From the IMG/VR virus record IMGVR_UViG_3300035698_013504, positions 136,904-200,903 of that record: 64,000 bases of DNA. One strand, 5' to 3'. This DNA comes from a virus. Taxonomy: Duplodnaviria > Caudoviricetes. Both the position numbers and the translations under genes were made by a program. This document shows, one piece after another, positions 9,328 to 40,876 of the stretch; position 1 is the stretch's first letter; each line of letters opens with the position of its first letter. Below the pieces are notes generated by a model that saw only the letters and a list, made by a program, of their open reading frames with translations, did no database searches and had not been told where the DNA came from.

Positions 9328-9361
9328 TTGACATTTAAGCGACAGAGCTGGTAAACTTGTC
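9328..9361 (+). promoter_or_regulatory. Sigma70-type promoter TTGACA-N15-TGn-TAAACT
   Basis: TTGACA 9328-9333, extended -10 TGG TAAACT 9349-9357; same architecture as the promoter at 25016. Confidence 0.7.
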
Positions 9362-9389
9362 ACAACATAACTTGGAAGTGGGCTATCGC

Positions 9390-10418: not shown

Positions 10419-10424
10419 GGCTAT

Positions 10425-10766: not shown

Positions 10767-10778
10767 GGAGATGTTGTT

Positions 10779-25015: not shown

Positions 25016-25049
25016 TTGACATATTAGCATGGTTGCTGCTAAACTTGTC
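25016..25049 (+). promoter_or_regulatory. Sigma70-type promoter TTGACA-N15-TGn-TAAACT
   Basis: TTGACA 25016-25021, TGC TAAACT 25037-25045 followed by TGTC, as at 9328. Confidence 0.7.
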
Positions 25050-25705: not shown

Positions 25706-25917
25706 GTATTGACAAAGATGGATCGACTCACGTCGGAGTAACTCCCTGCGAGGGTTGCGGTGAGCCCTCTACCGGCCGTGACGATAAAGGCCGGGCTCTT
25801 TGTGCCCGTTGTTTGACGCTTGAAAAATCCAGTGGCGTACTGGATGGACCCGCAGGTTCTTTGCGAACTGCGGGAGAAGACCTGGCCGTAAAACACACCG
25901 AGGGAAGTAATGGCTGA
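25702..25917 (+). CDS. Small Zn-finger protein
   Basis: CEGC...CARC; coupled on both sides. Confidence 0.6.
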   Translation: MSIDKDGSTHVGVTPCEGCGEPSTGRDDKGRALCARCLTLEKSSGVLDGPAGSLRTAGEDLAVKHTEGSNG

Positions 25918-27754
25918 TAATTTCCCGCTGTTTTCAAACCAGTCGGGGGGCGAAACAAACGCGATTGATCGCTACTCCGCTGAGTTCGGTAACCCCTTTT
26001 ACCACTACGCCACGAGCGCCATGCCCAACAAGCTCGATGACGTATTCAAGCTTGCCGAGCACATGTGGCTGACCGACGCTACCTTCAAACGCGGCATGCA
26101 ACGCGTTGTACGCTACTTCTTGACCTCTGTAGAGCTCAAGGATGTGGAAGCGGACGAGAAGGAGAAGTGGGACGAGTTCCTCTATGAAACCCTTGACATA
26201 ACCTCGCAGGCTGCGCTCGTGGGCGATGACTTTGTGGGGTATGGCAACAGCTTTACCTCGATCTATGTACCCTTCCGCCGCTACCTTGTCTGCCCCAAGT
26301 GTTACGTTCACCGGCCAATTGAGCGCGTGGACTACAAGTTCACCAACTTCAAGTTCATGGCGACGTGCCCGGCGTGTCAGTACAAGGGCGCGCTGAAGCG
26401 TATTGATCGTAGGACGGCTGAACAGGACAAGCTCAAGGTAATCAGATGGCCGGTGCAAGAGATGCGCCTACTGCACAACCCGATCAGCCAAGCGACCTGT
26501 TACGAGTGGCAGGTAAGCGCCACGATGAAGAAGAACATCGAGGCTGGCACAAATCACTACATCAATACGACACCTTGGGAGATCATTGATACGGTCAGGC
26601 GGAAGAAGACTCTGTTCCGCTTCAACCCGAAGATCATCTATCATATGAAAGAGGACTCCCTTGCTGGCGTACCTCTTTACGGCTGGGGCCTACCGCCTAT
26701 CCTGTCGAGCTTTAAGCAGGCATGGGTGCGCCAGATCCTCCGAAGGTACAACGAAGCCATTGCGATGGACTATATCGTTCCCTTCCGCCTGCTGACACCC
26801 GGCAAAGGATCACCAGCCGCCGACCCCCTTATTCACCAGGACCTTGGTAATTTCGTCAATAACATCATGGGGCAGATCAAGCAGCACCGCAAGGATCCCA
26901 CCTCGTGGCACGTTGTTCCTCACCCGGTTGACTACATGGCGATCGGCGGAGAAGCCAAGGACTTGGCCCCGACAGAACTCATCCAGTTTGAGGACGACGA
27001 GCTCCTCAACGGTCTTGGTATCCCCGCAGAGCTTTACCGCGGTACGATCCAGGTGCAAGCGGCCCCTACAGCCCTGCGCCTGTTTGAACGTACATGGACC
27101 TACTACGTCAGCGCGCAGAACGCATGGTTGCGCTGGTTGATCGATAGTTGTGCAGACCTTCTTAGCTGGGAACGTGTTGGCGGCAGATGGCAGCCGGTCA
27201 CCCTTGCCGAGGACATGGAGAAGAAGCAGGTGCAGCTCCAGCTCGCCGCAGGTATGCAGATTTCACGCGGTACGGCCTATGCCCCGTTTGGCATCGACTA
27301 CCGCGAGGAGATCCGCCGGATGTTCCAGGAAGAGCGCTTCTACCAAGACGAACAGAAGCGGTTCGAAGAGGAACAGGGCCAGCGACAGGAGATGGAGCAG
27401 CAGATGTCCACAGGAGGCCAACAGGGCGGCATGGGCGGCGGTATGATGCCACCTGGCGGCGGTATGATGCCGGGTATGCCTGCTGGCGCACCGGGATCGA
27501 TGGGCGCACCCATGGGTGGAGGGGGAGGCGCAGTCACACCGGAAGCGCTTTCAGCCCAGGCAGAAGAGCTCGCATACCAAATGCTCGCCATGCCGTATGA
27601 GTCTCGGCGGTCTCAGCTCTCCGATATCAAGGGGAGCAATCGTGAGCTACACGCCCTCACGATGGCTAAAATGCAGGAGATACGAGATCAGGCCGCAAGT
27701 GAGGGCAAGCAAGAGAAGTTACAGCAGCTTCAAGGTCAAGGCGCGGTTATGTAA
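25910..27754 (+). CDS. Probable portal protein with inserted Zn ribbon and Gly/Met-rich tail
   Basis: 614 aa; LVGDDFVGYGNSF, IYHMKE, YGWGLPPI, LLNGLGIP, LRLFE pattern resembling large-phage portals; CPKC...CPAC insert. Confidence 0.65.
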   Translation: MADNFPLFSNQSGGETNAIDRYSAEFGNPFYHYATSAMPNKLDDVFKLAEHMWLTDATFKRGMQRVVRYFLTSVELKDVEADEKEKWDEFLYETLDITSQAALVGDDFVGYGNSFTSIYVPFRRYLVCPKCYVHRPIERVDYKFTNFKFMATCPACQYKGALKRIDRRTAEQDKLKVIRWPVQEMRLLHNPISQATCYEWQVSATMKKNIEAGTNHYINTTPWEIIDTVRRKKTLFRFNPKIIYHMKEDSLAGVPLYGWGLPPILSSFKQAWVRQILRRYNEAIAMDYIVPFRLLTPGKGSPAADPLIHQDLGNFVNNIMGQIKQHRKDPTSWHVVPHPVDYMAIGGEAKDLAPTELIQFEDDELLNGLGIPAELYRGTIQVQAAPTALRLFERTWTYYVSAQNAWLRWLIDSCADLLSWERVGGRWQPVTLAEDMEKKQVQLQLAAGMQISRGTAYAPFGIDYREEIRRMFQEERFYQDEQKRFEEEQGQRQEMEQQMSTGGQQGGMGGGMMPPGGGMMPGMPAGAPGSMGAPMGGGGGAVTPEALSAQAEELAYQMLAMPYESRRSQLSDIKGSNRELHALTMAKMQEIRDQAASEGKQEKLQQLQGQGAVM

Positions 27755-28871: not shown

Positions 28872-28873
28872 TT

Positions 28874-29257
28874 ATGGCGCGAAGTACCGCAGCGGGCTCG
28901 GCCGACAATCTTCTAGAAACTTGGTTTAAGCGGGTTCTCGATCGCGTGGAGAAGCTGAGTGAGAAGTTCGGGGACCTCCGAACGGAGATCGCCGTGTTGA
29001 AGACTAAGATGGGTATCATGTGCGCGTGTATCGCACTGGTTATCAGTGTGATCTTTTCTGGTGTTACTCGCTACGTCGTAGTATCCTCTAACGATGCCCG
29101 GCTCACCGCGCAGCGTGTAGAGATAGGTAGGCTTCGCAAGTTGATCAATGCCGCGCCCTCACCGCACGCGGTCACACCGGCGGATGTCCGCCTTGAGATA
29201 GAGAAGCTGAAAGAGATGATTATAGAGATGAGCAAGAAGAAGGCTGCAACTCCGTAG
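28874..29257 (+). CDS. Single-pass membrane protein with coiled coils (holin/spanin-like?)
   Basis: Hydrophobic stretch MGIMCACIALVISVIFSGV flanked by heptad segments. Confidence 0.6.
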   Translation: MARSTAAGSADNLLETWFKRVLDRVEKLSEKFGDLRTEIAVLKTKMGIMCACIALVISVIFSGVTRYVVVSSNDARLTAQRVEIGRLRKLINAAPSPHAVTPADVRLEIEKLKEMIIEMSKKKAATP

Positions 29258-29292: not shown

Positions 29293-30207
29293 ATGGCTCA
29301 CAACGGTAACCGCTGGGTATGCGCCCAGATCATGACGACGTCGGTTTGTCCCGCCTCTTGCTTCTACTGCGCCTATCCCGACGGCTGGCACAAGGAGCAC
29401 CCCGGCCGTATGACAGAGGAGACGTTCGAGAAAGTCCTTGAGGGCCTACAACAGGTCGGAGACTTCTCGGGCGGTAAAGTCTGTCTCTACCTGATGAACG
29501 AGCCCCTCGCTGACCCCGACATCTGCTGCCGTATCGAGCGGGTCCAGGCGGTATTCCCTAAGACCCTCATCGAGATCAACACGAACGCTATGCTTCTCAA
29601 TGAGGAGCGGGGCCAGCAGTTTGCTGAGGTGATGAGTAAGCAGCGCCACCAGATCCACATCCACCTGTCGGGCTACGACGAAGAGACCAGCCAGCGTGCG
29701 ATGGGTCTCCCCTTCCAAGTACGGTACGACAACGTCGACCGCTTCCTAGGCCTTGTAGGTGAGTACAAACTCCACGTAGAGATCGAGGGCTTCTATCGTG
29801 CTGAGCCGAACAGTGGCCCTATTCTTTTTGACTACCACCCGTGGCGGGCGAAGATGAAAGAACTCAGCCGAGGCCGGGCCAAGAGTTATGACCTCTACAG
29901 GTTCCACGACCGGGCGGGCACGATCAAGAGACATGGCAATGTGGACTTTGGTCTGCGTCGTGACTGTGACTGCGACAAAAATGGGCCATGTAGACGCGTA
30001 CACGAATGGATACACACTGATTGGGAGGGCAGGTTGAGGATTTGTTGTAACGATTATCACCGGGAAATTACACTACCTCTCGTCAAAGACTTGCCGAATC
30101 TCAAAACATACCTGGAGGGCCACGAGTGGCAATTCGTACAAGGGTTATCACAGGGGACAGACGCGCCACTAGACTTCATATGTATGCGATGTCGGGGCAA
30201 TAGGTGA
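29293..30207 (+). CDS. Radical SAM/SPASM protein
   Basis: CPASCFYC; YLMNEPL; INTNA; C-terminal C...GRLRICCND...CMRC. Confidence 0.85.
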   Translation: MAHNGNRWVCAQIMTTSVCPASCFYCAYPDGWHKEHPGRMTEETFEKVLEGLQQVGDFSGGKVCLYLMNEPLADPDICCRIERVQAVFPKTLIEINTNAMLLNEERGQQFAEVMSKQRHQIHIHLSGYDEETSQRAMGLPFQVRYDNVDRFLGLVGEYKLHVEIEGFYRAEPNSGPILFDYHPWRAKMKELSRGRAKSYDLYRFHDRAGTIKRHGNVDFGLRRDCDCDKNGPCRRVHEWIHTDWEGRLRICCNDYHREITLPLVKDLPNLKTYLEGHEWQFVQGLSQGTDAPLDFICMRCRGNR

Positions 30208-30208
30208 A

Positions 30209-30958
30209 ATGAAAGCAAATGAACTAACCGGTCGCCGCTTTGGGGAGCTAACCGTTAAAAAACGGCTGGGCCCTCTACGTAAAGATACAGGCGATCGGCA
30301 TGTTTATTGGGGATGTAGTTGTTCGTGTGGTAACACCGCGGCTGTAGCAAGTACACAGCTTACAAGCGGTAAGACTAAGAGCTGCGGCTGTTTGCGGGGC
30401 AGGAGTCCCAGCTCTGTTGCAGCATTCGCGCGAGCCACGAAGGATTTGACCGGGAAGGTCTTCGGTCGTCTTACAGTCATTAGACAAGCCCCGACGCGAT
30501 GTAAGGGTAAGTCACGCTGGATCTGTAAGTGCTCGTGCGGTGAAGATAGGGACATACTTGGTCACAGCTTGGTAAGCGGCCACACAAAGAGTTGTGGGTG
30601 CTTGAGTGTGGAATTAAGGCGTGAGCGTAAAGGATCAAAGCACGGGTCTTGGAAGGGTGGCCGCAGCTTACAGCATGGTTACGTAATGATTCACCAGCCG
30701 GAACACCCTAACGCGAAAATCTCAGGGTATGTGCGCGAACACGCCCTTGTGATGTCGGAACATCTTGGTCGCCCTCTGCTATCCAACGAGAAGGTTCACC
30801 ACAAGAACGGCATCAGAGATGATAATCGACTTTGCAATCTCGAGCTTTGGACAGTATCGCACCCAACAGGCCAGCGAGTGGAGGACATTACAGCGTTCGC
30901 TATCAGACACCTGAAGCAATATGTGCCGAAGGCGTTAGCAACGCGCTACAGAAAATAG
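30209..30958 (+). CDS. Free-standing HNH homing endonuclease
   Basis: Two LTG(R/K)xFG(E/R)LTV...C.C.CG...L.SG.TKSCGC repeats; EKVHHKNGIRDDNRLCNLELW. Confidence 0.9.
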   Translation: MKANELTGRRFGELTVKKRLGPLRKDTGDRHVYWGCSCSCGNTAAVASTQLTSGKTKSCGCLRGRSPSSVAAFARATKDLTGKVFGRLTVIRQAPTRCKGKSRWICKCSCGEDRDILGHSLVSGHTKSCGCLSVELRRERKGSKHGSWKGGRSLQHGYVMIHQPEHPNAKISGYVREHALVMSEHLGRPLLSNEKVHHKNGIRDDNRLCNLELWTVSHPTGQRVEDITAFAIRHLKQYVPKALATRYRK

Positions 30959-30968
30959 GAGAATACCG

Positions 30969-31340
30969 ATGGCGGGTTACCCAACAGAACTTGAAAGACA
31001 GATTCAGCTACTTTGTGGCGGCAAGGCTCCGGCAGGTGAAGTCACGTCGCAGGACATCAAGATTCCCAAGATGACCGAGCGTATCCTGCACATGGCGCAG
31101 GAAGAGGCACAGTTGCACGGCATGCGGGAGCCGGGGTCTCTGCACGCCCTCAAAGAGAGTATACGACAGACACTGAATCAGCCACTCCGCAGCGTTTCTA
31201 ACGATATTGACGAAGGTAAGCCGATGAACGCTGTGCGGATTGCCGTAGGCGAAGACTTGCTCGGCAAGCTGGCCCTCTACATGTACGCGACGATCAACTT
31301 CGCAGCACAAGAGCCGCCGAACGACTGCGGGGTGTGTTAA
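30969..31340 (+). CDS. Hypothetical protein
   Basis: RBS GGAG. Confidence 0.65.
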   Translation: MAGYPTELERQIQLLCGGKAPAGEVTSQDIKIPKMTERILHMAQEEAQLHGMREPGSLHALKESIRQTLNQPLRSVSNDIDEGKPMNAVRIAVGEDLLGKLALYMYATINFAAQEPPNDCGVC

Positions 31341-31341
31341 A

Positions 31342-32271
31342 ATGCTACGAGGACCTTGCGGCGTCATGTTTCACCACTTCACCGGGGCAGGTCATACTCA
31401 TGGGCAGGGAGCTATTAGCTCTCGTACCTTCTCTGCATTCCTTGATAATATGGGCGATCGTATCATCGGTGCCACTAAATGGCACGACCTAGCTCTTAAA
31501 GGCGACCTGAACGATCAGGTGTGTCTTACGTTCGATGATGGGCTACAGTCACAGTACGCCATAGCCCGGTACGCCATGGTGGAGCGAAAGCTCACGGCTT
31601 TCTTCTTTATCTACACCGCCCCCATGTCTGGCCGCCCGGAGCGTATGGAGATCTACCGGAAATTTAGGTCGACGCACTTCTATCAGATTCAAGACTTCTA
31701 CGATCAGTTCATCACGCGTGTGGCGAAGATCTTCCCGGATATGATGACACGTGAGAGTATGTTAGGGGCGCGTTACTACCTACGCGATTACACTTTCTAC
31801 TCTGACGCTGATCGTGTCTTCCGTTATATCAGGGATATTCTCCTTGGTGCCGACAAGTATGTAGAGCTCATGGATACGTGGATTGTCTCTCAGGTAGGGG
31901 ATATCGACGCTTACATGCACCACCTTTGGATGGGCGCTGACGAGATCAAGACGTTGTCTAACGAGGGGCATGTGATCGGTATGCACGCGCACACGCACCC
32001 TACGACGTTCAGTGACTTCCAGCAACACTCCGAGTACTACGCGAACAGGGAGATCCTGCGCTCGGTGACGGGCGTGACTCCTACGGTCGTGTCCTACCCT
32101 TCAGACCTTTTCAATTACCGCACGCGGGTTACGATGCAGGAGCTGGGGGTTACCCTCGGTTTCCGCGCAAAGCCGCAGCATAGTGGCACTGATCTGTTTC
32201 AGATGCCTAGAGAGGATTGCGCCACAGTATGCACATTACAGTCTTCACCAGCAACCAACCTCGGCACCTAG
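31342..32271 (+). CDS. Polysaccharide deacetylase (CE4-like)
   Basis: MFHHF, CLTFDDG, IGMHAHTH, SYPS. Confidence 0.85.
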   Translation: MLRGPCGVMFHHFTGAGHTHGQGAISSRTFSAFLDNMGDRIIGATKWHDLALKGDLNDQVCLTFDDGLQSQYAIARYAMVERKLTAFFFIYTAPMSGRPERMEIYRKFRSTHFYQIQDFYDQFITRVAKIFPDMMTRESMLGARYYLRDYTFYSDADRVFRYIRDILLGADKYVELMDTWIVSQVGDIDAYMHHLWMGADEIKTLSNEGHVIGMHAHTHPTTFSDFQQHSEYYANREILRSVTGVTPTVVSYPSDLFNYRTRVTMQELGVTLGFRAKPQHSGTDLFQMPREDCATVCTLQSSPATNLGT

Positions 32272-33056
32272 CACTGCTCTACTGCCTGCGAGAACACTGC
32301 GACAGTATGACGGTAGTGATGGAGTGTAACACTATCTTTCCAGGACGTACTAAGGACTTCTTTCGCAAGTCGGATGCTATGCGGGCGTACTTTCAGCGCG
32401 TGATGATAGCGGAGAAGAGGGTATTCGGTCACTACCCTAAGGTGACACCGGACGACACGGATATTATCCCGCTGCGTATGGGCGATCTTACGCAGATACC
32501 TCTTTCGATTTTAGCTCCTATCCTCAGAGGTTCCGACCACTTTGTTGTGTTTGGGTCGTCGTACATCCGAGGGCCCCTATTCAACTTTTTGCCGGACCGT
32601 ACGATCAACATTCACATGGGTATTTCGCCGTATTACCGTGGGAGCTCATGTAATTTCTGGGCTATGTACGATAAGAACCCTCAGTTTGTAGGCGCCACAA
32701 TTCATTACCTTAGTGAGAAGCTAGACGGCGGCAATATCCTTCTCCATGCTATACCGCTGGCGCAACCTGTCGACCCCTTCACGTATGGCATGCTTTCCGT
32801 TAGAGCCGCCATTGAGGGGCTTGTCACTGAGGTCATAGCTCCGGGTATACGGCTTGACGAAGGCGTACCACAAGACAGCCTGCCGGATACGATTCGGTAC
32901 AGCGTTAATAAGGACTTCACCGACGCGGTTGCCGACGAGTATCTTGAGCGTGCGGTGTCGCAGGAGGAGATGTTCGAGGCGGTGTGTCACCTACCGGATA
33001 GGTTTGCTGATGTACCGCCGTACGTTGCAACAGAATGGGAAGAAGGCAAAGATTGA
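32229..33056 (+). CDS. Sugar N-formyltransferase (formyl_trans_N family)
   Basis: INIHMGISPYYRGSSCNFWA, GATIHYLSEKLDGGNIL. Confidence 0.8.
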   Translation: MHITVFTSNQPRHLALLYCLREHCDSMTVVMECNTIFPGRTKDFFRKSDAMRAYFQRVMIAEKRVFGHYPKVTPDDTDIIPLRMGDLTQIPLSILAPILRGSDHFVVFGSSYIRGPLFNFLPDRTINIHMGISPYYRGSSCNFWAMYDKNPQFVGATIHYLSEKLDGGNILLHAIPLAQPVDPFTYGMLSVRAAIEGLVTEVIAPGIRLDEGVPQDSLPDTIRYSVNKDFTDAVADEYLERAVSQEEMFEAVCHLPDRFADVPPYVATEWEEGKD

Positions 33057-33814
33057 TTACCGCGGTTATCCCAATCAGACAGACGGAGGAGCATAGTCGG
33101 TCATGGGACCGGCTGGAGATAGGTATCAGCTCCCTCAAGAGGTTCGTACCCTCTGTGACGAGTATCTTCGTTGTTGACAGTAACTCTGATGAGCCGTGGG
33201 CTACCGAGCTTGTGGACATCTGTGAGCGTCTTGACGTTCACCTGTGGCGTATTGACGACCTAGATCATTGGAACAAGTGCAAGACGATGAATGCGGCGAT
33301 GTATCAAGCTGTGACGCCGTACGTCATGCAGTTCGACGTGGACATGGTCATTACGACAGACGAGGTGGAGAAGGCGATTCAGGCGCAGCTTGAACCCAAT
33401 ATCTTCCTCACCTTCCTCATCCATAACTTATGCCACCAGTTGACGTGTGACAGGGTTATCGAAGAGGATGCCGATAAGCTCCACGAGTGGATGAAGTCAC
33501 ACAGCCTACTACGAGCTGGTGGCCGATCTACCGGCGGTATCCAGATCTTTGACCGTACTTGGTTCCTTAAGGTACGTGGTTACGACGAGGAGTACGCCTT
33601 GTGGGGCCGTGAGGACGATGATATGGTGAAGAGGGCTAAGTTGGACGGCCTGACCCATCTGCACGACCGTACGCTCGTGTTTCACATCGGCCACAAGAAC
33701 CCCATCAAGACGAAGGATCAGATGAAGGCCAACGAGATCAGGTACAAGACGACAGAGACAGTCGTACGTAACGACGAAGAGTGGGGATCTGTCCCCATCC
33801 GTAAACTAGTATAG
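33035..33814 (+). CDS. Glycosyltransferase (GT2/GT7-like)
   Basis: VVDSNS, MQFDVDM, GYDEEYALWGREDDD. Confidence 0.8.
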   Translation: MGRRQRLITAVIPIRQTEEHSRSWDRLEIGISSLKRFVPSVTSIFVVDSNSDEPWATELVDICERLDVHLWRIDDLDHWNKCKTMNAAMYQAVTPYVMQFDVDMVITTDEVEKAIQAQLEPNIFLTFLIHNLCHQLTCDRVIEEDADKLHEWMKSHSLLRAGGRSTGGIQIFDRTWFLKVRGYDEEYALWGREDDDMVKRAKLDGLTHLHDRTLVFHIGHKNPIKTKDQMKANEIRYKTTETVVRNDEEWGSVPIRKLV

Positions 33815-33839
33815 ACACCTTACGATAAGGAGAAGGACA

Positions 33840-34856
33840 GTGTTGAACCCCCCGATCAACCACAACGAGCGCGTTGTGCACCAGGGTGGCATGTATGACG
33901 TTTGGAAATCAAGACGGAAGCCCGGGTACGACGAGTACCGTGCCGCGTGGGAGAACAACCCGGCCCAGCAGATCGTGGGTAAGTTCCCAATCCACCTCGA
34001 CTGCGAGGTGACGAGCCGGTGTAACCTCGCGTGCCCGTTCTGTATGCGGACGAGTATGTTCCGCGAGGGGCATACCGCTAACTTCTGGCTTGGCGACATG
34101 AAGCCGGAGGTCTACTACAAGTGTATTGGTGAGGGAGAGACGAAGGGTCTCAAGTCCGTCAAGTATAACTTCCTCGGCGAGTCCCTTCTCATCGGGTCTG
34201 AGCGTCTCTATGACTACATCCACTACGCTACTGCGCTGGATGGTATCCAGGAGACCCTACTCAACACCAACGCCTGCCTGCTTGACCACGACATGACGAC
34301 GGCGCTGTTGGAGTCTCGTCTGGACAAGCTGATCATCTCGATGGACTCCCCCGACCCCGAGACGTATGAGAGTCTACGAGTTGGCGCCTCGTTCGATAAC
34401 GTGGTGGGTAACGTCCGTCACTTCATCGAGCAGCGTAACCGCGGTAAGTTCTTCGGTACGCTCGTACGTCTGCAGATGACGGTGGTCCCCGAGAACAAGG
34501 ACCATGTCGCAGACTTCGTCGAGATGTGGAAGCCGTATGCCGACGAGGTTACAGCGAACGTCGCTTGTGCCGTCATCGAGAACGAGACGAAGGAACAGTT
34601 TATCAACGACCCCAACCGGCTGATGTCTTGCCCGGCGCCGTGGCAGCGCTTGATCGTGTTGGCTGACGGCCGAGTTGTACCGTGCTGTGGTGACCATCAC
34701 CACGTTTACATCCTCGGTGACGCGCTGGCCGACAACTTGTCGGATATCTGGGTCGGACGTAAGATGAAAGAGTTGCGCAAGGCGATCTCAACAGGTAGTA
34801 TCGACGAGATGGCTGTCTGTAAGATCTGTAGTGGTAGGAGAATGCGACCAGTATGA
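33840..34856 (+). CDS. Radical SAM/SPASM protein
   Basis: CNLACPFC; CPAPWQRLIVLADGRVVPCCGD...CKIC. Confidence 0.88.
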   Translation: MLNPPINHNERVVHQGGMYDVWKSRRKPGYDEYRAAWENNPAQQIVGKFPIHLDCEVTSRCNLACPFCMRTSMFREGHTANFWLGDMKPEVYYKCIGEGETKGLKSVKYNFLGESLLIGSERLYDYIHYATALDGIQETLLNTNACLLDHDMTTALLESRLDKLIISMDSPDPETYESLRVGASFDNVVGNVRHFIEQRNRGKFFGTLVRLQMTVVPENKDHVADFVEMWKPYADEVTANVACAVIENETKEQFINDPNRLMSCPAPWQRLIVLADGRVVPCCGDHHHVYILGDALADNLSDIWVGRKMKELRKAISTGSIDEMAVCKICSGRRMRPV

Positions 34857-36295
34857 TTAAGACCTTGGCTGTAATCCCAGCGCGGGGAGGCTCCCAGAGA
34901 GTCCCCCGCAAGAACCTACGGATGCTTGGAGGTGTACCTCTAATCATGCACACGATTGAGTGTGCGAAGAGTGTGGACGGCATCGAGGATATCGTTGTGT
35001 CCACGTCCGACCCTGAGATCGCCAGTGTCGCTAAGGCGGCCGGTGTGCTCGCGGTTACACGTCCCGTAGAGCTTAGGGGCCCTGACGTATGGGCCTTTGC
35101 TGTCACAAAGGATGCAGTCAGTCAGACTGAGACGTTGACGGGTAAGACGTACACGCAGGTTGTGCATCTTCAGCCCACTTCCCCGTTCCGTAAGCCGGAG
35201 CTGATCAAAGCGGCACTTAGCTTGGCCGACGAGTTCAGTCCAAACATGGTGACGTCAGTGGCTCCGGTCCCGAAGTATCACCATCCCGCCATGTTGCTCT
35301 CAGATACGCAGAAGGGTGCGGTCCCGTGGATGAAAAGGTGGAAGCCAATCCCGGACGGTATTGAAGAACGGGTCAAGTGGTACGGCAACTATCCGGGGTT
35401 CTATCCTACGGGTAGTGTAGCTGTCTTGCAGCTTCCGTGGCTCATGACTTGTGATATAGGTCAGTTGACGAACATCTCGTGGCCAATAGGTACGAAGGCA
35501 CGCTTTGTCGTTGAGGAAGACGAGATCGCTAATCTCGACATTGACACGGAGTTGGACTTCAGGTTCGCCGAGTTCATTAATGGCCTCGAGAGTGAGAGGG
35601 AGACGTCACACGTCGACCTGCACCCCTACGAGGGCCACCTCGACTACCTGACGGGTAAGCGTGTGGCTGTTGTGGGTAACTCGTCAGCTATGATTGACAC
35701 CGACTACGGTGAGCGTATTGACGGTTACGATGAGGTTGTACGCATGAACATCGCCGCGACCCGGGGATACGAGAAGGACGTTGGTACCAAGATGTCTATC
35801 TGGGTTACCTGCTTGCCTCGGCGTGAGGCGTGGAAGGCGAACCAGCTCCGAGCGAAGGGTATCCACAGTGTGTGGCTCAGCAACGTAGGCCCATCTAGGC
35901 AGCGCAACGTGCGGCTGCGTCAGTATAAGACGTTCCCGGTCTATTGGTATGATTACGACAAGACTCAGAAGATGCGGGATGAGTTCGGGCAGATTCTTAC
36001 GAGCGGCGGTGTCGTTCTACATGCGATCCTTACCCACAGTGCCCCGAGCGAGGTATTCTTGACAGGGTTCACCTTCTTGCGTGAGTTTCATCAGAAGGGT
36101 ACTCCTATAGCATATGCCGCCCGCCCAGAGCTTCGCTACGGTGACGGCCGGGGTGAGCATAAGAATATGGCCCGAGAATTGGAGATGGTGCGCGACATGA
36201 TCCGGAATGCCACAGGCACGAAGTTCATTGTTGCAGCGCATACGAACGAGGTACTAAACCTCGAAGGCGAGGATCATGTGGAGGTTCTGAAATGA
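34853..36295 (+). CDS. CMP-nonulosonate synthetase (NeuA-like) fused to GT29 sialyltransferase-like domain
   Basis: N-term IPARGGSQRVPRKN, LQPTSPFR, DIDTELD; C-term VAVVGNSS...IDGYDEVVRMN...YEKDVGTK = sialylmotif L. Confidence 0.85.
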   Translation: MIKTLAVIPARGGSQRVPRKNLRMLGGVPLIMHTIECAKSVDGIEDIVVSTSDPEIASVAKAAGVLAVTRPVELRGPDVWAFAVTKDAVSQTETLTGKTYTQVVHLQPTSPFRKPELIKAALSLADEFSPNMVTSVAPVPKYHHPAMLLSDTQKGAVPWMKRWKPIPDGIEERVKWYGNYPGFYPTGSVAVLQLPWLMTCDIGQLTNISWPIGTKARFVVEEDEIANLDIDTELDFRFAEFINGLESERETSHVDLHPYEGHLDYLTGKRVAVVGNSSAMIDTDYGERIDGYDEVVRMNIAATRGYEKDVGTKMSIWVTCLPRREAWKANQLRAKGIHSVWLSNVGPSRQRNVRLRQYKTFPVYWYDYDKTQKMRDEFGQILTSGGVVLHAILTHSAPSEVFLTGFTFLREFHQKGTPIAYAARPELRYGDGRGEHKNMARELEMVRDMIRNATGTKFIVAAHTNEVLNLEGEDHVEVLK

Positions 36296-37338
36296 ACCAC
36301 AAGGAATTCTTAGGCGTATCGACAGAGGCGCGCCCGTTTATCGTAGCTGAGGCCGGGCACAACCATGAGGGCGACATTGATGTTGCCCGCGAGATGATCT
36401 ACAAGGCAAAAGAGGGCGGAGCTGACGCCATCAAGTTTCAGACAATCATACCGGGTCGACTTGTCTCACCCAGCTTCCCGATAACCGCCGCGTACGCAGC
36501 TGAAATGGCAAGGGCTTCCGCATTCTCCCTTCCGTTTGACAACTTCATTGCCTTAAAGGAAGAGGCAGAGAAGGTCGGCATCCTCTTCTTCTCGACGCCT
36601 TTTGATGTGCCGAGTGCAAAGATGTTGGTTAGTCTTGGCATCCCGGCTTTCAAGATAGGTTCGGGGCAGATCGACCTTTGGCCCATGGTAGATATCGTCG
36701 CGAGGGCGTGTAGGCCGGTGATCCTTTCTACTGGCGCGTCAACAATTGCGGATGTACGTACGGCCATTGGACGTATTCGTGCTGGGTGGGGACGTATGAA
36801 TTGGCAAGGGCAGCTCGTGTTGCTTAACTGCACCTCGATGTATCCCACACCGTCCGAGCACGTCCATCTTAGACGTATCCAGGAGCTACATAGGGTTACG
36901 CGCCTTGTCGGCTTCTCGGACCACACCGAGGGTATACAGGCCTCTGTACTGGCTGCAGTGATGTTTGACACCTTCATGATTGAAAAGCATTTTACGTTGG
37001 ACAAGAACTTCTCCGACTTCTGCGACCATAAGATCTCCGCGACGGCCGAGGACCTTAAAGATATGATCCGGCTGATCATGGAAGGTAAGGCGATGATTGG
37101 GTCGGAGACCCGCCCGGTACTTGACGACGAGAACCAAAGCCTTATCCGCCACTCCGCGTGTGCGGCCAGGGCGCTGCCCGAGGGGCATACCTTGAACCGG
37201 GATGACATTGTGTGGCTTCGGCCTCAGCATGGCGTTAAGCCCGGTGAAGAGCGGCAGATCTTCGGTAAGAACCTTAAGGTAGCTAAGGAAGACGGGGAAA
37301 CCATCAAACTGGATGACGTATGTAGTTCAGTCGAATAA
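36292..37338 (+). CDS. neuB: Nonulosonic acid synthase (NeuB/LegI/PseI family)
   Basis: IVAEAGHNHEG, ADAIKFQT, STPFD, ILSTG, CTSMYP, GFSDHTEG, IEKHFTLDK, C-terminal SAF domain. Confidence 0.92.
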   Translation: MNHKEFLGVSTEARPFIVAEAGHNHEGDIDVAREMIYKAKEGGADAIKFQTIIPGRLVSPSFPITAAYAAEMARASAFSLPFDNFIALKEEAEKVGILFFSTPFDVPSAKMLVSLGIPAFKIGSGQIDLWPMVDIVARACRPVILSTGASTIADVRTAIGRIRAGWGRMNWQGQLVLLNCTSMYPTPSEHVHLRRIQELHRVTRLVGFSDHTEGIQASVLAAVMFDTFMIEKHFTLDKNFSDFCDHKISATAEDLKDMIRLIMEGKAMIGSETRPVLDDENQSLIRHSACAARALPEGHTLNRDDIVWLRPQHGVKPGEERQIFGKNLKVAKEDGETIKLDDVCSSVE

Positions 37339-37352
37339 AGGAGACCGATGCA

Positions 37353-38972
37353 ATGCTGGAACCTTATGTACCCACCAAGAGAGATGTGCTCGATGTTAAC
37401 AGAGCATGCCAGGCCCGCTGCGATTTTTGTTACTACTTCCATAGCGGCGGCTCTGGGTCTTTCGGACATGACCCGAATTGGGTTATGCCTCTTCAAGGCG
37501 CTATCAACAAGTTGAACCGTATGAAAGAGATCGGGTGCGAGTTTGCCGACTTTACAGGCGGTGAGCCCACTCTCTATAAGGCGATGCCAGCGCTGCTTGA
37601 GCATTGCGCGGCCATCGATCTGACACCTTGTATTATCACCAACGGGTTAGCATCCCATGACAAGTTTGGGTCGTACCTGGAAGCCAACCCGAACACGCGG
37701 TTCCTCTTGTCGCTTCACGGCGCGTCTGGAGTAACCCACGACGCGGCGATGGGCGTTGACGGCGCTTTTGCGACCATGCTTTCACTTATGAGGTTCCTAC
37801 TGGACCGTGGTGTGTTCTTTCGTACCAACACGGTGATCACACGCAGGAACTACAAAGAGCTTGAGGATATTGCGAGTATTGCTCGTTGCGCCGGGGCTCG
37901 AATGTCCAACTTCATCTTCTTTCAGCCCTTTCACGGTTGGGATAAGAATCAAAACGACGACGTGCAAGTAGCCCCCGACCTTGTGGGGCCGTACCTTAGC
38001 CGAGCTGTGCATGAGCAGCGCGCCCACAACTACTGGGTACAGATACGGTACTTCCCCTACTGTTGCATCGATGAGGACTGCTGGCAGAACATATGCGGTC
38101 AGACTCAGGTTAGGCTGGACCCCTATGAATGGCTGTATAATCCCCCTTCGATTGATATGGAGTTCTCTCTTCGTAAGTGTCGCGAGAAGGCCCGTGACCG
38201 TTACGGTAAGGGTAATGATGTCTGTGACGCTTGTCAGATACGCGCTGTCTGTGGCGGCAACTACGAGACACGTACGAACATGTATGGTACGGCCGGGTTA
38301 CGGGCTGTGACGGACAGATATACGGAGAACGTCTTTGAGTTCCGCGATGATCTCAAGACGGACATCATCATTCCCTCCTACAAGGCGGCGGCTCTGCCGG
38401 GCATCATAGATGAGGTGGTGCGCACGGCCGTACAGCCCTATCGTATTATCATCCAAGGAGATGAGACACACGCGACCATTAACCGGCAGAGGGGCCTTGA
38501 TGCTTCAGACGCCGATTGTGTTATCATGGTAGATGACGACATCCGAGATCTACCGGAAGGGTGGAACCGAGCCTTTGTTGAAATCCTTCGAGCAAACCCA
38601 CAAGTCTGTGCCGTGTCCGCACGGCTGCTTGATCGTGATGGTCGGGCCGCCCCTAATTCAGCCGACAATTTCGATCTGTCCGAATCTCTCGTACGCGTGC
38701 CTCTCATACCTACTGCCCTCTGTGCCTTTAGACGACCTAGCAAGGCTCGCTTTGATCCACGGTATCGTGGAAGCGGGTTCGAAGACTCCGACTTCTTCTT
38801 GCAGCTAGCGGGTGAGTATAACCCCTGTAACGAGATCGCGATTACAAACGATATCCGAGTTATGCACCTACATGAGAAGAAGGAGCAAAGCCGATTTCAT
38901 GACCACAATAAATCTCTCTTTGAAGCCAAGTGGGGTCCCATTCGTAAAATCATGCGAGGACAAGATGCCTAA
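37353..38972 (+). CDS. Radical SAM/SPASM fused to GT2 glycosyltransferase
   Basis: CQARCDFC, TGGEPTL, CDACQIRAVCGG; then DIIIPSY, IMVDDD, GFEDSD. Confidence 0.85.
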   Translation: MLEPYVPTKRDVLDVNRACQARCDFCYYFHSGGSGSFGHDPNWVMPLQGAINKLNRMKEIGCEFADFTGGEPTLYKAMPALLEHCAAIDLTPCIITNGLASHDKFGSYLEANPNTRFLLSLHGASGVTHDAAMGVDGAFATMLSLMRFLLDRGVFFRTNTVITRRNYKELEDIASIARCAGARMSNFIFFQPFHGWDKNQNDDVQVAPDLVGPYLSRAVHEQRAHNYWVQIRYFPYCCIDEDCWQNICGQTQVRLDPYEWLYNPPSIDMEFSLRKCREKARDRYGKGNDVCDACQIRAVCGGNYETRTNMYGTAGLRAVTDRYTENVFEFRDDLKTDIIIPSYKAAALPGIIDEVVRTAVQPYRIIIQGDETHATINRQRGLDASDADCVIMVDDDIRDLPEGWNRAFVEILRANPQVCAVSARLLDRDGRAAPNSADNFDLSESLVRVPLIPTALCAFRRPSKARFDPRYRGSGFEDSDFFLQLAGEYNPCNEIAITNDIRVMHLHEKKEQSRFHDHNKSLFEAKWGPIRKIMRGQDA

Positions 38973-39333
38973 GTACCTCTACCGCAAGATACCGTTTCAT
39001 GCATACCAGGTAGACGTAGACACGGATGTTACGAGTTCCCTCGGTGACGACGTCGCTCACCGGGGGGACTGGATTCTCCAGTACAGGGCTACAGGTTTCA
39101 TGCTTGTCTTGAACGACGAGGAGTTTCAGGCTCACGTGACCCCCAACCCTAAGTCAGTTGATGATAAGGGGTCCGAGTCCGTACGAGCCGCCATTACAGA
39201 GGAGTTCAAGAGGGGCGTTGCCGAGCTACGGACTTTTATGGATCCAGTACGCGCCGCAATAACCACGTCACAGGTACCAACCAATGAGAAACATACGGTC
39301 GCAGATATTCCGCGGTCAGCGGTGGCGGGTTGA
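38965..39333 (+). CDS. Hypothetical protein
   Basis: ATG 38965 within ORF 38812-39333. Confidence 0.6.
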   Translation: MPKYLYRKIPFHAYQVDVDTDVTSSLGDDVAHRGDWILQYRATGFMLVLNDEEFQAHVTPNPKSVDDKGSESVRAAITEEFKRGVAELRTFMDPVRAAITTSQVPTNEKHTVADIPRSAVAG

Positions 39334-39562
39334 GCACGTAAAGAAGCTTAAAGGTGCTGACGGCGACATAGACGACCCGTCGACAACAGGTAAGGTCTTG
39401 CGCCTGAAAGAGGGCCTGCCACCCGTTAGGGAACTGGAGTGCGCGATTCACGAGGGTCTCCACGGGTGCTTCTGGGACCTCGACGAGGCGGCTATCACAC
39501 AGTCCGCTACGGACCTGGCCAGGTGGCTATGGCGACTTGGCTACAGGAAGATACATCAGTAA
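39284..39562 (+). CDS. Small HExxH-motif protein
   Basis: AIHEGLHGCFWDLDE; start uncertain. Confidence 0.55.
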   Translation: MRNIRSQIFRGQRWRVEHVKKLKGADGDIDDPSTTGKVLRLKEGLPPVRELECAIHEGLHGCFWDLDEAAITQSATDLARWLWRLGYRKIHQ

Positions 39563-39585
39563 CGTGCTACAGAAAGGACAACACG

Positions 39586-40416
39586 ATGTCTCACCAGCTT
39601 GAAGAAACAGTTGACTATGAGGACCTCAACCGTGTTGCCATGGTTGTCACGTGTAAGGGTAGACTCACCCACCTGAAGGAAACGATCGAGTCCAAGATGG
39701 ATGTAATGGGCGTCGACCACGTCGTTATCGTGGATTACGATGACCCGAGTGACTCTTTCGGCTGGGCCTGCGAGTTGGATGATCCCCGTATCACGGCGAT
39801 TAAGGTGGAGGACCGCGAGTTCTACCACCATGGTAAGGCTCGCAACATTGGGCTTCGAGTAGCCATTGAACGTCTGAAGGCGAACGCCATACTGCTTACT
39901 GATGCAGATGTACGGTTCCACCCGGCCTTTGTGGATCACTGTACGCGCGTGCTGGTCGGCCACCCCCACGAGATATGCGTGATCGGTAACTGCAAGAACA
40001 AGTTCAGCGGTGGCGCAGGCACCGTATTCTCCTCCGCGCGCCTTGTAGCTGAGGTCCACGGTAATCAGGAGCTGCTTCAAGAGGCTTGGGGCGCCGACGA
40101 CACAGATCTGAAACGTCGTATGGAGCATCACGCTCACGAGACACGCGGTTACCCCCATCCCTGCCCTGAGTTCAACGGCGAGCTTCTGGACGTGATTGGA
40201 CATGGCTCAGGTGATCGTACACGTCACTACGTGGTCAAAGCCATGGGTGAAGGCGAACGCCGTAACACCAAGATTGCCCTTGATTGGCAAAAGGAGCACG
40301 GCTGGATAGCTAACCCCGACGGGTGGGGCCAAGCGATCGGACACATCCTTCTGCCGGGTCATGATGTGCAGAGATACGACAGCCGCTCGTCCACATTCCT
40401 GACTGAATACGCATAG
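39586..40416 (+). CDS. Glycosyltransferase (GT7/galactosyltransferase-like)
   Basis: VTCKGRLTHLKE, IVDYDD, KARNIG, LTDADV, WGADDTD. Confidence 0.8.
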   Translation: MSHQLEETVDYEDLNRVAMVVTCKGRLTHLKETIESKMDVMGVDHVVIVDYDDPSDSFGWACELDDPRITAIKVEDREFYHHGKARNIGLRVAIERLKANAILLTDADVRFHPAFVDHCTRVLVGHPHEICVIGNCKNKFSGGAGTVFSSARLVAEVHGNQELLQEAWGADDTDLKRRMEHHAHETRGYPHPCPEFNGELLDVIGHGSGDRTRHYVVKAMGEGERRNTKIALDWQKEHGWIANPDGWGQAIGHILLPGHDVQRYDSRSSTFLTEYA

Positions 40417-40491
40417 GGCAAAGCGTTACTATAAGGTGACACCCCGCCTCCTAATATTTTGCGTTGGTTTCTTTTGTGGAGAGGATTCACC

Positions 40492-40743
40492 ATGGGCATG
40501 TTCGACAGCTTGTATGTATGTTGTCCCGCTTGCGGGGCGCAGAACGAGTTCCAGTCTAAGGCTGGAGCTTGCACGCTTCATAACTACAGCGTGTCCGACG
40601 TCCCCCCGTCGATAGCCGGGGACCTCAACGGCGACTATCAGGCCTGCGAAGGTCCGGGCTGCGACAAGATTATCACCCTTCGGGTTCAGACCATGCTTAG
40701 CGTTATGGTCTCCGACAGTCCGCCCGACGATGACGAAGACTAG
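40492..40743 (+). CDS. Small Zn-ribbon protein
   Basis: MGMFD...CPACG...FQSK. Confidence 0.6.
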   Translation: MGMFDSLYVCCPACGAQNEFQSKAGACTLHNYSVSDVPPSIAGDLNGDYQACEGPGCDKIITLRVQTMLSVMVSDSPPDDDED

Positions 40744-40753: not shown

Positions 40754-40824
40754 GGGCGTCGAGGACATGCCCCACATCATGCGGATGACCTCCGCGTGTT
40801 GGTTCTCGGCGCCCACCTTCTTTT
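40754..40824 (+). terminator. Probable terminator ending the glycan cluster
   Basis: GGGCGTCGAGGA/TTCTCGGCGCCC stem followed by ACCTTCTTTT. Confidence 0.55.
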
Positions 40825-40847: not shown

Positions 40848-40876
40848 TTGACAATCAGCAACCACCATGCTAAGAT
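40848..40876 (+). promoter_or_regulatory. Sigma70-type promoter of the RNA island
   Basis: TTGACA-N17-TAAGAT with extended TG. Confidence 0.75.

Follow-up and report, generated by a model that had tools for sequence, protein, structure and literature searches.

The gene block at positions 29293-40416 (plus strand) of the window, the whole stretch of 64,000 nucleotides that was analysed, is read here, with roughly even confidence, as a 'late-half' nonulosonate (NulO) cassette whose target is cytoplasmic, most probably Ser-O-linked glycans on proteins. An earlier note on this DNA had described nonulosonate synthesis from a NeuB synthase, a NeuA-GT29 fusion, a CE4 deacetylase next to an N-formyltransferase, three radical SAM enzymes, one of them a GT2 fusion, and two further glycosyltransferases. 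All of these genes were recovered, with one glycosyltransferase less clear than the other. The enzyme set fits nonulosonate synthesis, CMP-activation and transfer, for the late half of the pathway and not for a full one.

Genomic context

The source is a complete 200.9-kb jumbo phage genome bearing terminal repeats, and its host looks bacterial, with Shine-Dalgarno sites present. The cluster forms a single co-directional block of closely packed genes, all on the plus strand, as are all window genes described below. It is flanked by a 614-aa gene (25910..27754), previously called portal-like, which is the portal and has no part in the sugar chemistry. By tblastn its matches include the protein annotated as portal in Salmonella phage Arash (26% identity, E 1e-60) and sequences of Vibrio phages D181/D148/D69 (31% identity), and Atlas feature and structure matches fall in Portal_Mu/Phage_portal clusters; no Pfam or PHROG match was found for this gene. 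Sigma-70-like sites lie at 25016-25045 (10/12) and 40848-40876, the number of such sites being equal to the shuffled expectation, and a terminator-like hairpin (40778-40798) lies 3' of the small reading frame at 40459-40743.

That the block is host DNA misjoined to a phage, such as the misassembled host LPS locus named in the earlier note, or a recently captured non-functional island, is scarcely credible. Such a reading could draw on the lack of close viral relatives of the cluster proteins and on the HNH endonuclease gene that breaks the operon. Against it, the genome is complete with terminal repeats, the genes are tightly overlapping on one strand, and GC content is 52-57% across the block and both flanks. 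Furthermore, 100%-identical contig pieces from four salt-lake runs (2017-2019) tile the block and flanks at an even 2-4x depth, and all cluster reading frames are open with intact catalytic motifs. The recurrence of a complete 200.9-kb phage in salt-lake metagenomes indicates that the cluster is not a misassembled host locus.

Predicted synthesis, activation and tailoring of the sugar

The NeuB-family synthase (36292..37338; 348 aa, including a C-terminal SAF-like domain) matches PF03102 at 5e-59, can be aligned with PDB 1xuu over residues 12-342, and keeps 37 of 37 invariant columns in a 36-sequence alignment. Its NCBIfam scores (TIGR03569, 255 bits; TIGR03586, 199 bits) both lie under the equivalog cut-offs and so do not assign the sugar to a type. 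The phylogeny that the earlier note had proposed as a check places the phage NeuB in a bacterial clade, within a ten-member set (SH-aLRT 95) in which no member has an epimerase neighbour and six have a DegT neighbour; this placement is unsure because the phage branch is long (1.77). Three bacterial clusters from this clade (L012, L017, L018) have CE4 and formyltransferase genes adjoining NeuB. The window was already described as devoid of a NeuC-type epimerase, and the absence extends to the whole 200.9-kb genome, where Epimerase_2, DegT and Polysacc_synt_2 (2-epimerase, aminotransferase and dehydratase) are all missing. The hexosamine precursor must thus come from the host.

Activation and transfer are combined in one gene (34853..36295), which comprises a CMP-nonulosonate synthetase (residues ~1-242; PF02348, CTP_transf_3, 8e-21) and a GT29-type sialyltransferase domain (~250-480; PF00777, 6.5e-14). 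PDB matches are NeuA 1eyr for the first half (2.5e-19, residues 4-242) and ST3Gal-I for the second (3e-7), in which the sialylmotif L/S/VS columns are conserved across a 53-sequence alignment. An AF2 model of the fusion (pLDDT 81.6) gave 43 Foldseek matches at E<=0.001, all 43 of them sialyltransferases, and no transmembrane segment was found in the protein. Overlaps of 4 nt couple the genes for rSAM2, the fusion and NeuB. A viral contig (L185) carries the unfused order NeuA-GT29-GT29-NeuB-NeuC.

The CE4 carbohydrate de-N-acetylase (31342..32271; 309 aa; PF01522, 7e-14) has a long insert between its TFDD and H-x-H-x-H motifs and weak PDB matches to peptidoglycan/polysaccharide deacetylases. 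It adjoins a sugar N-formyltransferase of ~275 aa (32229..33056, with a start at 32217 or 32229), which matches PF00551 (Formyl_trans_N) at 31.5 bits against a cut-off of 26.1. Among solved structures its best match is PseJ (6ci2/6ci4, E 3.5e-8), of a pseudaminic-acid-type pathway of Anoxybacillus kamchatkensis, with which the catalytic I-N-x-H and L-D-x-G segments align. These matches, together with the recurrence of the pair beside bacterial NeuB genes, bear out the N-formyl tailoring suggested before, and the sugar made by the cluster is probably N-formylated, as judged from sequence. Unlike PseJ, the phage enzyme comes paired with a CE4 deacetylase, and the similarity between the two is confined to ~110 residues. 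The pairing suggests the swap of an existing N-acetyl group, and not acylation of a free 4-amino group.

The first radical SAM enzyme (rSAM1, 29293..30207; 304 aa; PF04055, 2e-12) bears CxxxCxxC at residues 19-26, and its C-terminal part has Cys clusters in an auxiliary-cluster-like region. It weakly matches the rSAM/SPASM gene of a bacterial NeuB cluster, L013 (27% over 103 aa, E 9e-10). The second (rSAM2, 33840..34856; 338 aa; PF04055, PF13186) has a twitch/SPASM auxiliary-cluster domain and is BtrN-like, with BtrN as its top PDB sequence match (5e-10). BtrN (4m7t) is also the top Foldseek match (E 1.8e-13, TM 0.76 by target) of its AF2 model (pLDDT 79.5, pTM 0.83), and homologues of rSAM2 adjoin NeuB in bacterial L013 and in viral L128, L139 and L141. 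The third (rSAM3-GT2, 37353..38972; 539 aa) joins a BlsE-like radical SAM domain (PF04055, 8e-14; top PDB match BlsE 7vob, 2e-9) to a GT2 domain (6e-4). Full-length bacterial homologues share 35-38% identity, many with extra TPRs. The resemblance of two of the enzymes to the sugar-acting BtrN and BlsE, and the recurrence of rSAM2 homologues beside NeuB, agree with the radical-SAM tailoring proposed previously.

Glycosyltransferases and candidate acceptors

Of the two further glycosyltransferases, GT2a (33035..33814; 259 aa) is a clear GT-A enzyme with a beta4GalT-like C-terminal segment (PF02709, 6e-12; PF10111, 1.4e-8) and weak PDB matches to beta-1,4-galactosyltransferase 1/7. It also matches the GT2/7C domain of P0235 (26% identity, E 9e-7), a GT29+GT2+methyltransferase fusion on a phage-like contig (L011). 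GT2c (39439..40416, with a start at 39439, 39529 or 39583) is a possible GT-A enzyme with a D-x-D-like TDAD motif; its matches to GT2 (E 5e-3) and Glyco_transf_7C (E 6e-3) both lie under the cut-off, and no PDB match was found.

Hydrophobic 19-mers of KD >= 1.6 are absent from all 13 cluster proteins, and no flippase, polymerase or initiating phosphoglycosyltransferase was found in the block. A cytoplasmic target is proposed because all cluster proteins are soluble. Two of four bacterial rSAM-GT2 contexts (L002, L005) lie beside flagellin/FlgK/FliS genes; the other two are non-flagellar, which counts against the preferred reading. In addition, a second glycosyltransferase block occurs at genome positions 104714-111800 (Capsule_synth/GT64-like, GT2, methyltransferase, GT9 and GT2-like genes), within a Baseplate_J/BppU tail module and with poly-Ser proteins on both sides. 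Ser runs are confined to 62.4-112.3 kb of the genome. Taken together, the lack of membrane segments and export genes, the flagellar-island relatives and the poly-Ser glycosyltransferase block lean towards a cytoplasmic protein target, for which the phage's own poly-serine tail/fibre proteins are perhaps the best candidate acceptors. Most poly-Ser proteins, however, carry no PHROG or Pfam structural label, and the cassette lies ~54 kb away from the tail module. No poly-S/T runs were found at other viral GT29/NeuB loci within the stretches examined, so the link is seen in this genome alone.

From these gene identities we infer an order of steps and their substrates. The host would provide an N-acetylated hexosamine precursor, from which CE4 would strip the N-acetyl group and to which the PseJ-like formyltransferase would add N-formyl. 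NeuB would then join the sugar with PEP to give a nine-carbon acid, and the BtrN-like rSAM2, perhaps with rSAM1, may modify the sugar. The synthetase/GT29 fusion would activate it with CTP and transfer it directly to an acceptor glycan, itself putatively assembled by soluble GT-A enzymes, namely GT2a, the GT2 part of rSAM3-GT2 and possibly GT2c. Ser-O-linked attachment would follow the manner of flagellin glycosylation.

Alternative explanations

During infection, the cassette could instead alter a host structure (flagellin, pilin, S-layer, LPS or capsule), so that superinfection is blocked by receptor masking or the cell surface is changed. This is unlikely, though it is the alternative to be taken most seriously. 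The rSAM-GT2 relatives beside flagellar genes suggest that the native acceptor of the family may be flagellin, and the dependence on host precursors implies a host with a related sugar of its own. Glycosyltransferase clusters of jumbo phages have been interpreted as a means of modifying surface polysaccharides and so preventing superinfection (PMC7824862), and prophage enzymes tailor Acinetobacter capsule nonulosonates (PMC12053666; Kenyon 2019, cited in 10.1101/2022.03.25.485807). However, with no export genes or membrane segment in the block, a route to LPS or capsule would depend on the host for every export step. The phage rSAM-GT2 also lacks the TPR repeats of many bacterial relatives, and the phage has abundant candidate acceptors of its own, with a second glycosyltransferase block in its tail module.

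It is a good deal less probable that the functions are split, with at least one radical SAM/SPASM enzyme acting as a peptide or protein maturase, one that might cross-link or oxidise residues in a small Cys-containing product such as the 123-aa frame, or in a virion protein, while only NeuB, NeuA-GT29, CE4, the formyltransferase and the GT-A enzymes make the glycan. The structural matches of rSAM2 that follow BtrN are the peptide maturases SuiB, CteB, anSME and SkfB, the NCBIfam matches are mixed peptide maturases, a further radical SAM gene lies within the virion module, and the 123-aa frame near rSAM1 terminates in CGVC. Nevertheless, BtrN tops the rSAM2 matches in both sequence and structure and BlsE those of rSAM3, which is covalently joined to a glycosyltransferase across a conserved family. 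rSAM2 overlaps the NeuA-GT29 gene and its homologues adjoin NeuB in at least four further loci, and neither a RiPP recognition element nor an obvious multi-Cys precursor was found. Hypermodification of DNA, whereby the glycosyltransferases would put the sugar on modified phage bases to evade restriction, is highly improbable. Viral glycosyltransferases do hypermodify DNA with diverse glycans (10.1101/2023.12.21.572611), and the cluster enzymes are soluble. Yet the genome has no ThyA-type pyrimidine hydroxymethylase, and the GT29 enzymes and flagellar-island relatives suggest that the acceptor is a glycan or a protein. A search for Tet/JBP matched nothing in the genome, although its control likewise matched nowhere, so that the result carries no weight. 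We know of no case of a nonulosonate on DNA.

Comparison with known systems

The protein-directed cassette favoured here resembles bacterial flagellin O-glycosylation (Maf, FlmG; Pse/Leg in Campylobacter, Caulobacter and Brevundimonas), in which soluble, cytoplasmic glycosyltransferases use Pse/Leg donors and Ser/Thr acceptors, and Maf has a GT29/GT42-like GT-A domain (10.1101/2022.03.25.485807). Soluble enzymes, a CMP-activated nine-carbon acid donor, a sialyltransferase-like GT-A transferase and an rSAM-GT2 family that occurs beside flagellar genes are common ground; for the phage, Ser acceptors are candidates. In contrast, the cassette has neither MAF_flag10 nor the TPR/GT-B FlmG domain, its transferase is a true Pfam GT29 joined to a CMP synthetase, enzymes for the upstream sugar steps are lacking, and the carrier is a lytic-type jumbo phage genome. 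The GT29 domain shares with animal sialyltransferases (ST6GalNAc2, ST3Gal-I, ST8SiaIII, ST6Gal1) an above-cut-off Pfam match, sialylmotifs L and S, the VS histidine and the predicted fold. It differs in its fused synthetase, its lack of a membrane anchor, its length of ~230 residues, a TM-score of only ~0.46, and its nearest relatives, which are uncultured, partly phage-like sequences.

Haloarchaeal virus HRPV-1, also from a hypersaline habitat, has 5-N-formyl-legionaminic acid on its VP4 protein, as does the S-layer of Halorubrum sp. PV6 (Kandiba 2012; PMC6137143), whose cluster has a predicted formyltransferase adjoining the leg genes (PMC6137143). In VP4 the N-formylated nonulosonate is at the glycan terminus on a virion protein, as may be the case for the phage. 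HRPV-1 encodes no pathway gene and its glycan is N-linked by archaeal host machinery, whereas the present phage, apparently bacterial-hosted, carries the late pathway. Prophages of Acinetobacter baumannii likewise alter a host-made nonulosonate, through EpaA/EpaB (PMC12053666) and 4-O-acetyltransferases (Kenyon 2019), but with only a gene or two for tailoring, directed at the capsule, while the present phage itself encodes synthase, activating enzyme, transferase and several glycosyltransferases. Glycosylation is also established for the virions of mycobacteriophages (Freeman et al. 2023, Cell Host Microbe; cited in PMC12582341), where phage-encoded glycosyltransferases and a methyltransferase lie in or near the virion module, with structural proteins as proposed acceptors. 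The present phage differs in having its own genes for a nonulosonate synthase, for activation, for N-formyl tailoring and for radical SAM enzymes, and its candidate acceptors are extended poly-Ser stretches of tail proteins. The mycobacteriophage glycans are reportedly neutral and hexose-based, with host NDP-sugars used.

No phage nonulosonate cassette was found in the literature searched. New in this analysis are the whole-genome lack of upstream enzymes, the NeuB clade with recurrent CE4 and formyltransferase genes, the full-length bacterial relatives of rSAM-GT2 (two of four beside flagellar genes), the lack of any cluster membrane segment, and the second glycosyltransferase block among poly-serine tail-module proteins.

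Accessory reading frames

Four genes of the block were missing from the earlier account. The 123-aa frame (30969..31340) has a good Shine-Dalgarno sequence and no Pfam or NCBIfam match. A frame of ~121 aa (38968..39333; longest frame from 38812) starts at an internal ATG overlapping the previous gene's stop codon, and has no Pfam or PHROG match. The co-directional block is closed by a small Cys-rich, zinc-ribbon-like frame (40459..40743) with only a sub-threshold match to DUF7577. The HNH endonuclease (30209..30958; PF13392, HNH_3, 3.5e-7), with repeated Zn-finger-like N-terminal modules bearing C-x-C-x-CG motifs, has probably invaded the operon as a mobile element.

Gene content and integrity of the cassette

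The block at 29293-40416 of the window very probably encodes enzymes that make, activate and transfer a nonulosonate, a sialic-acid-like sugar. The + strand carries every long open reading frame (ORF) of this block, as it does in most of the window, and Pfam, NCBIfam and PDB sequence searches recovered all the gene classes named in an earlier note made from the sequence alone. The radical SAM enzyme rSAM1 (29293-30207) is followed by an HNH endonuclease (30209-30958) that the earlier note lacked, a predicted carbohydrate de-N-acetylase of family CE4 (31342-32271; PF01522), a PseJ-like N-formyltransferase (about 32229-33056; PF00551) and a GT2/Glyco_transf_7C glycosyltransferase (GT2a; 33035-33814). 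Further along are rSAM2, with a SPASM/twitch domain (33840-34856), a fusion of a CTP_transf_3 synthetase and a GT29 sialyltransferase domain (NeuA-GT29; 34853-36295), the synthase NeuB (36292-37338; PF03102), a radical SAM and GT2 fusion (rSAM3-GT2; 37353-38972) and a possible glycosyltransferase (GT2c; 39439-40416). Three small ORFs were also added. Two separate glycosyltransferases had been proposed, of which GT2a stands, and GT2c is reduced to a sub-threshold GT2 match. The genes of the block abut or overlap, and the overlaps of rSAM2 with NeuA-GT29 and of NeuA-GT29 with NeuB (4 nt each) argue for co-translation of these three genes.

The virus record (200,903 bp) has direct terminal repeats and is rated complete, with the window forming its final 64 kb. 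GC content is 52-57% across the block and its flanks. The region at 24-43 kb is tiled at an even 2-4x depth by 100%-identical short contigs from four salt-lake metagenome runs (2017-2019), and neither joints nor variant letters were found in these contigs. A misassembled host locus is thus ruled out, as far as the data allow, by even tiling, uniform composition and the complete genome. The 614-aa gene adjoining the block (25910-27754) is the portal gene. In Salmonella phage Arash, whose portal is a distant relative, the portal gene is followed by genes for RNA polymerase rather than by sugar genes, so the block is absent at that site. Counts of promoter and terminator sites equalled the shuffled expectation. 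Between portal and block (27789-29257) lie a PAS-GAF protein that lacks an output domain and a 127-aa protein whose single transmembrane segment is strong (KD 2.48).

NeuB and the extent of the pathway

NeuB is a full-length protein with a TIM-barrel NeuB domain (PF03102, 5e-59) and a C-terminal SAF-like domain; TIGR03569 was matched over positions 1-329 of 329, and PDB 1xuu was aligned over residues 12-342. All 37 invariant columns of a 36-sequence alignment, comprising metal and substrate residues, are retained. The protein falls below the NCBIfam equivalog cut-offs for both NeuB_NnaB (255 bits against 399.65) and PseI (199 bits against 340.25), and even its closest relatives share no more than 43% identity.

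The absence of a NeuC-type epimerase, previously noted for the window, extends to the complete genome, in which the profiles PF02350 (Epimerase_2), PF01041 (DegT) and PF02719 (Polysacc_synt_2) had no match. The same profiles were positive in 11-14 of 14 control genomes. Since the epimerase, aminotransferase and dehydratase are missing while the controls are positive, the phage encodes only the late half of the pathway.

The NeuB phylogeny that the earlier note had suggested was built from 83 sequences labelled by gene neighbourhood, and placed the phage protein within a set of ten with an SH-aLRT value of 95. This placement is provisional because of the long branch of the phage NeuB. No member of the set has an epimerase neighbour within 10 kb (0/10) and six of the ten have DegT; the neighbours in common are SDR, GFO/IDH, CTP_transf_3, AsnB-like and GNAT genes. 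In three loci of the set (L012, L017 and L018), CE4 and formyltransferase genes flank NeuB, as in the phage. A NeuB clade without an epimerase neighbour may represent an undescribed type of nonulosonate pathway. Bacterial loci with clade neighbourhoods lacking a NeuC/LegG-type epimerase are L012-L019 and L035, and L013 adds two radical SAM/SPASM genes, a B12-radical SAM gene and several methyltransferases. The NeuB relatives gave no host signal, the nearest ones being scattered over many phyla.

A fused activating enzyme and sialyltransferase

The NeuA domain of the fusion is full length (PF02348, 8e-21) and aligns with PDB 1eyr over residues 4-242 (E 2.5e-19). The GT29 domain scores 52.4 bits against a Pfam cut-off of 23. 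Residues of about 250-480 of the fusion contain sialylmotif L (G-K-R-V-A-V-V-G-N-S ... I-D ... D-x-V-x-R-x-N), motif S and the VS histidine. These motif columns are conserved in an alignment of 53 sequences, the relatives having been collected by an exhaustive HMMER search, and H222 of the domain is present in at least 90%. The AlphaFold (AF2) model of GT29 reached a pLDDT of 81.6 and a pTM of 0.81. All 43 Foldseek matches at E<=0.001 were sialyltransferases, with modest TM-scores of about 0.46; GT29 enzymes ranked first, followed by a Pasteurella multocida sialyltransferase and GT42 CstII/CstI. Animal GT29 enzymes have a type II membrane anchor and act in the secretory pathway, whereas the phage GT29 has neither, being placed behind a cytoplasmic synthetase with no membrane anchor or hydrophobic segment.

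A word-indexed search found the same NeuA-GT29 fusion in no other protein. The nearest GT29 relatives are GT29-only or multidomain proteins, two of them in phage-like contigs (L009 and L011). The L009 protein (8001-11033 of a 39-kb stromatolite metagenome contig) is a stand-alone GT29-family member of 379 aa, encoded two genes ahead of the gene for a terminase-like large subunit. In L185, an IMG/VR viral genome of 67.5 kb, positions 1448-8755 hold, in this order, genes for a methyltransferase, NeuA, GT29 and a fusion of sulfotransferase with GT29, then one unnamed ORF and finally neuB, neuC and a gene of the DHDPS family. Thus, the NeuA-GT29-NeuB association recurs in viruses, there unfused. 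The DHDPS-family gene of L185 is sialate-lyase-like, and helicase genes come next.

A predicted N-formyl sugar

The CE4 match (PF01522, 7e-14) is restricted to residues 194-271, and TFDD and H-x-H-x-H motifs were read by eye, separated by an unusually long insert. The formyltransferase scores 31.5 bits with PF00551 (cut-off 26.1). PseJ is its best solved relative, and HMMER alignment to PseJ and GART showed that the I-N-x-H and L-D-x-G catalytic segments are kept. Together, these two enzymes would exchange N-acetyl for N-formyl on a host-made precursor. The need to accept such an altered substrate would account for a phage-encoded synthase and activating enzyme. We consider an N-formylated sugar rather probable. 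A hypersaline precedent is 5-N-formyl-legionaminic acid on the virus HRPV-1, where the entire sugar is made by the host (PMC6137143), whereas here both the synthase and the enzyme for activation are phage-encoded.

Radical SAM enzymes

The best relative of rSAM2, both by sequence and by structure, is the twitch-domain carbohydrate dehydrogenase BtrN; peptide maturases rank behind it. Full-length homologues of rSAM2 adjoin NeuB in bacterial locus L013 and in three viral contigs (L128, L139 and L141). The radical SAM domain of rSAM3 is nearest to the sugar-nucleoside decarboxylase BlsE. A separate peptide-maturase role for some of the radical SAM enzymes is rather unlikely and would concern mainly rSAM1.

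Uncultured bacteria have proteins of the whole rSAM-GT2 architecture, 35-38% identical and frequently extended by TPR repeats; the phage protein lacks the TPRs found in many relatives. Two of the four contexts examined place the gene beside flagellar genes, namely FlgN-FlgK-flagellin-FliW-CsrA in L002 and FliS in L005, of which the continuation (L004) encodes an aminotransferase, a formyltransferase and a giant glycosyltransferase/methyltransferase protein. The context of L007 contains TPR-GT2 proteins, and that of L006 was uninformative. This uncharacterised bacterial family is a candidate for a new class of flagellin-glycosylation enzymes, and nothing in the literature searched ties radical SAM enzymes to flagellin glycosylation. 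Bacterial fusions of radical SAM and GT2, with or without TPRs, lie at L002:10001-11656, L004:606-2660, L005:2148-4202 and L007:10001-12052. A fifth Radical_SAM match, weak and sub-threshold at 19 bits, sits at genome positions 196736-196927 (window about 59833-60024), within a frame of 332 aa close to the genome's right end.

The acceptor of the sugar

Across the 13 block proteins, no 19-residue window reaches a hydrophobicity of KD 1.6, and no flippase, polymerase or initiating transferase is encoded in the block. Soluble proteins and missing export genes fit the flagellin paradigm of cytoplasmic transfer to Ser/Thr, in which the transferases are soluble and cytoplasmic and Maf has a GT29/GT42-like GT-A domain (10.1101/2022.03.25.485807). 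The Maf and FlmG flagellin systems share with the phage soluble cytoplasmic enzymes and a CMP-nonulosonate donor, represented here by the genes for NeuB and the CMP synthetase. However, those systems have MAF_flag10 or a TPR and GT-B FlmG architecture, and no cluster protein gave a Pfam match to either at E<=0.01.

Modification of the host instead, on flagellin, pili or surface polysaccharide, has precedents in the prophage tailoring of Acinetobacter nonulosonates (PMC12053666) and in jumbo-phage glycosyltransferase clusters read as anti-superinfection devices (PMC7824862); we judge it fairly unlikely here. Glycosylation of DNA is highly improbable, as no ThyA-type hydroxymethylase was found. 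The Tet_JBP profile had no match in the genome, which carries no weight because it matched no control either. A virion protein as acceptor, which we rate at close to an even chance, is suggested by the tail region of the same genome. Ten + strand ORFs at genome positions 62419-112340 (L103, L104 and L105, other parts of the genome) contain Ser runs of at least five, which occur nowhere else in the genome. Three of them have 63-77 Ser within runs, with a typical tract of S8-[NWDY]-S6-8. The region also encodes Baseplate_J, BppU_N and a protein that has a lectin-like domain and bears the PHROG label 'virion structural protein'; PHROGs label only one of seven poly-Ser proteins.

Within this tail/fibre module, about 25-32 kb ahead of the window start, lies a second glycosylation block (genome 104714-111800; L103:8715-15801). 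Its products are a 724-aa protein of Capsule_synth (KpsS/C-like) and GT64-like type, a 300-aa GT2, a 517-aa Methyltransf_24 protein, a 335-aa GT9 and a 481-aa GT2-like protein that carries Zn-ribbons. No PDB sequence match was obtained for the Capsule_synth-like protein or for GT2c of the first block. Directly behind the second block stands a protein of 174 aa that begins and ends in poly-Ser, and poly-Ser proteins of the Baseplate_J/BppU module lie on both sides of its five glycosyltransferase and methyltransferase genes. Mycobacteriophage virions are described as glycosylated in work cited by PMC12582341 (reference 80), and the second block resembles that type of system in having glycosyltransferase genes in a virion module, beside Ser/Thr-rich structural proteins. 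Given the second block and the poly-Ser module, the leading candidates for the acceptor are tail/fibre proteins of the phage itself. The link between cassette and poly-Ser proteins is circumstantial, and comparison gives it no support, since poly-Ser/Thr runs were absent from the stretches examined of six other GT29 or NeuB viral loci (L008, L009, L011, L185, L128 and L139), and those in L123, L142 and L176 are isolated and confined to short frames.

Taken as a whole, a tentative and somewhat unlikely picture is that of mucin-like tail fibres, in which long poly-Ser linkers would receive O-glycans in the cytoplasm, with a new N-formylated, radical SAM-tailored nonulosonate as the cap. Capping would be performed by one activate-and-transfer polypeptide through a eukaryote-type GT29, and rSAM-GT2 would represent an unrecognised protein-glycosylating class common to bacterial flagellar glycosylation islands.

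Occurrence and significance

The cassette is akin to known kinds of system, bacterial nonulosonate protein glycosylation and phage virion glycosylation. Its particular features are a pathway limited to the late half, the fusion of NeuA with GT29, the pairing of CE4 with a formyltransferase, a set of three radical SAM enzymes and, amid poly-Ser tail proteins, another glycosyltransferase block. No phage nonulosonate cassette of such a kind was reported in the literature searched. Should this reading of the cassette be right, a virus of bacteria can complete and attach a sialic-acid-like sugar with its own enzymes, probably on its own particle, with effects on host recognition, stability in brine and contacts with other cells. 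In addition, the natural fusion of a CMP-sugar synthetase and a soluble GT29 would offer a ready-made 'activate-and-transfer' enzyme for glycoengineering. Orphan radical SAM families gain testable functions, both the BtrN-like enzyme that travels with NeuB and the partly flagellar rSAM-GT2 family. For the NeuB clade without the usual 2-epimerase, the presence of CE4 and formyltransferase points to a way of making N-formyl nonulosonates.

A NeuB homologue occurs in only three of 50,697 deposited phage records; one record is a contig of the bacterium Moritella viscosa, and identity in the other two does not exceed 27%. In contrast, IMG/VR holds at least 381 NeuB-like stretches, so the trait is under-described rather than unique. 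Single-protein scans of IMG/VR gave no close relatives of NeuB, rSAM-GT2, NeuA-GT29 or the portal, and megablast of the block against deposited phages gave no match. Several contigs of two metagenome runs match only a 32-nt piece of the HNH gene (30794-30826) and continue into unrelated sequence on both sides, this piece being probably a conserved HNH core common to other elements. Homologues of the HNH protein (38-40% identity) are present in three NeuB-bearing viral loci (L155, L161 and L162).
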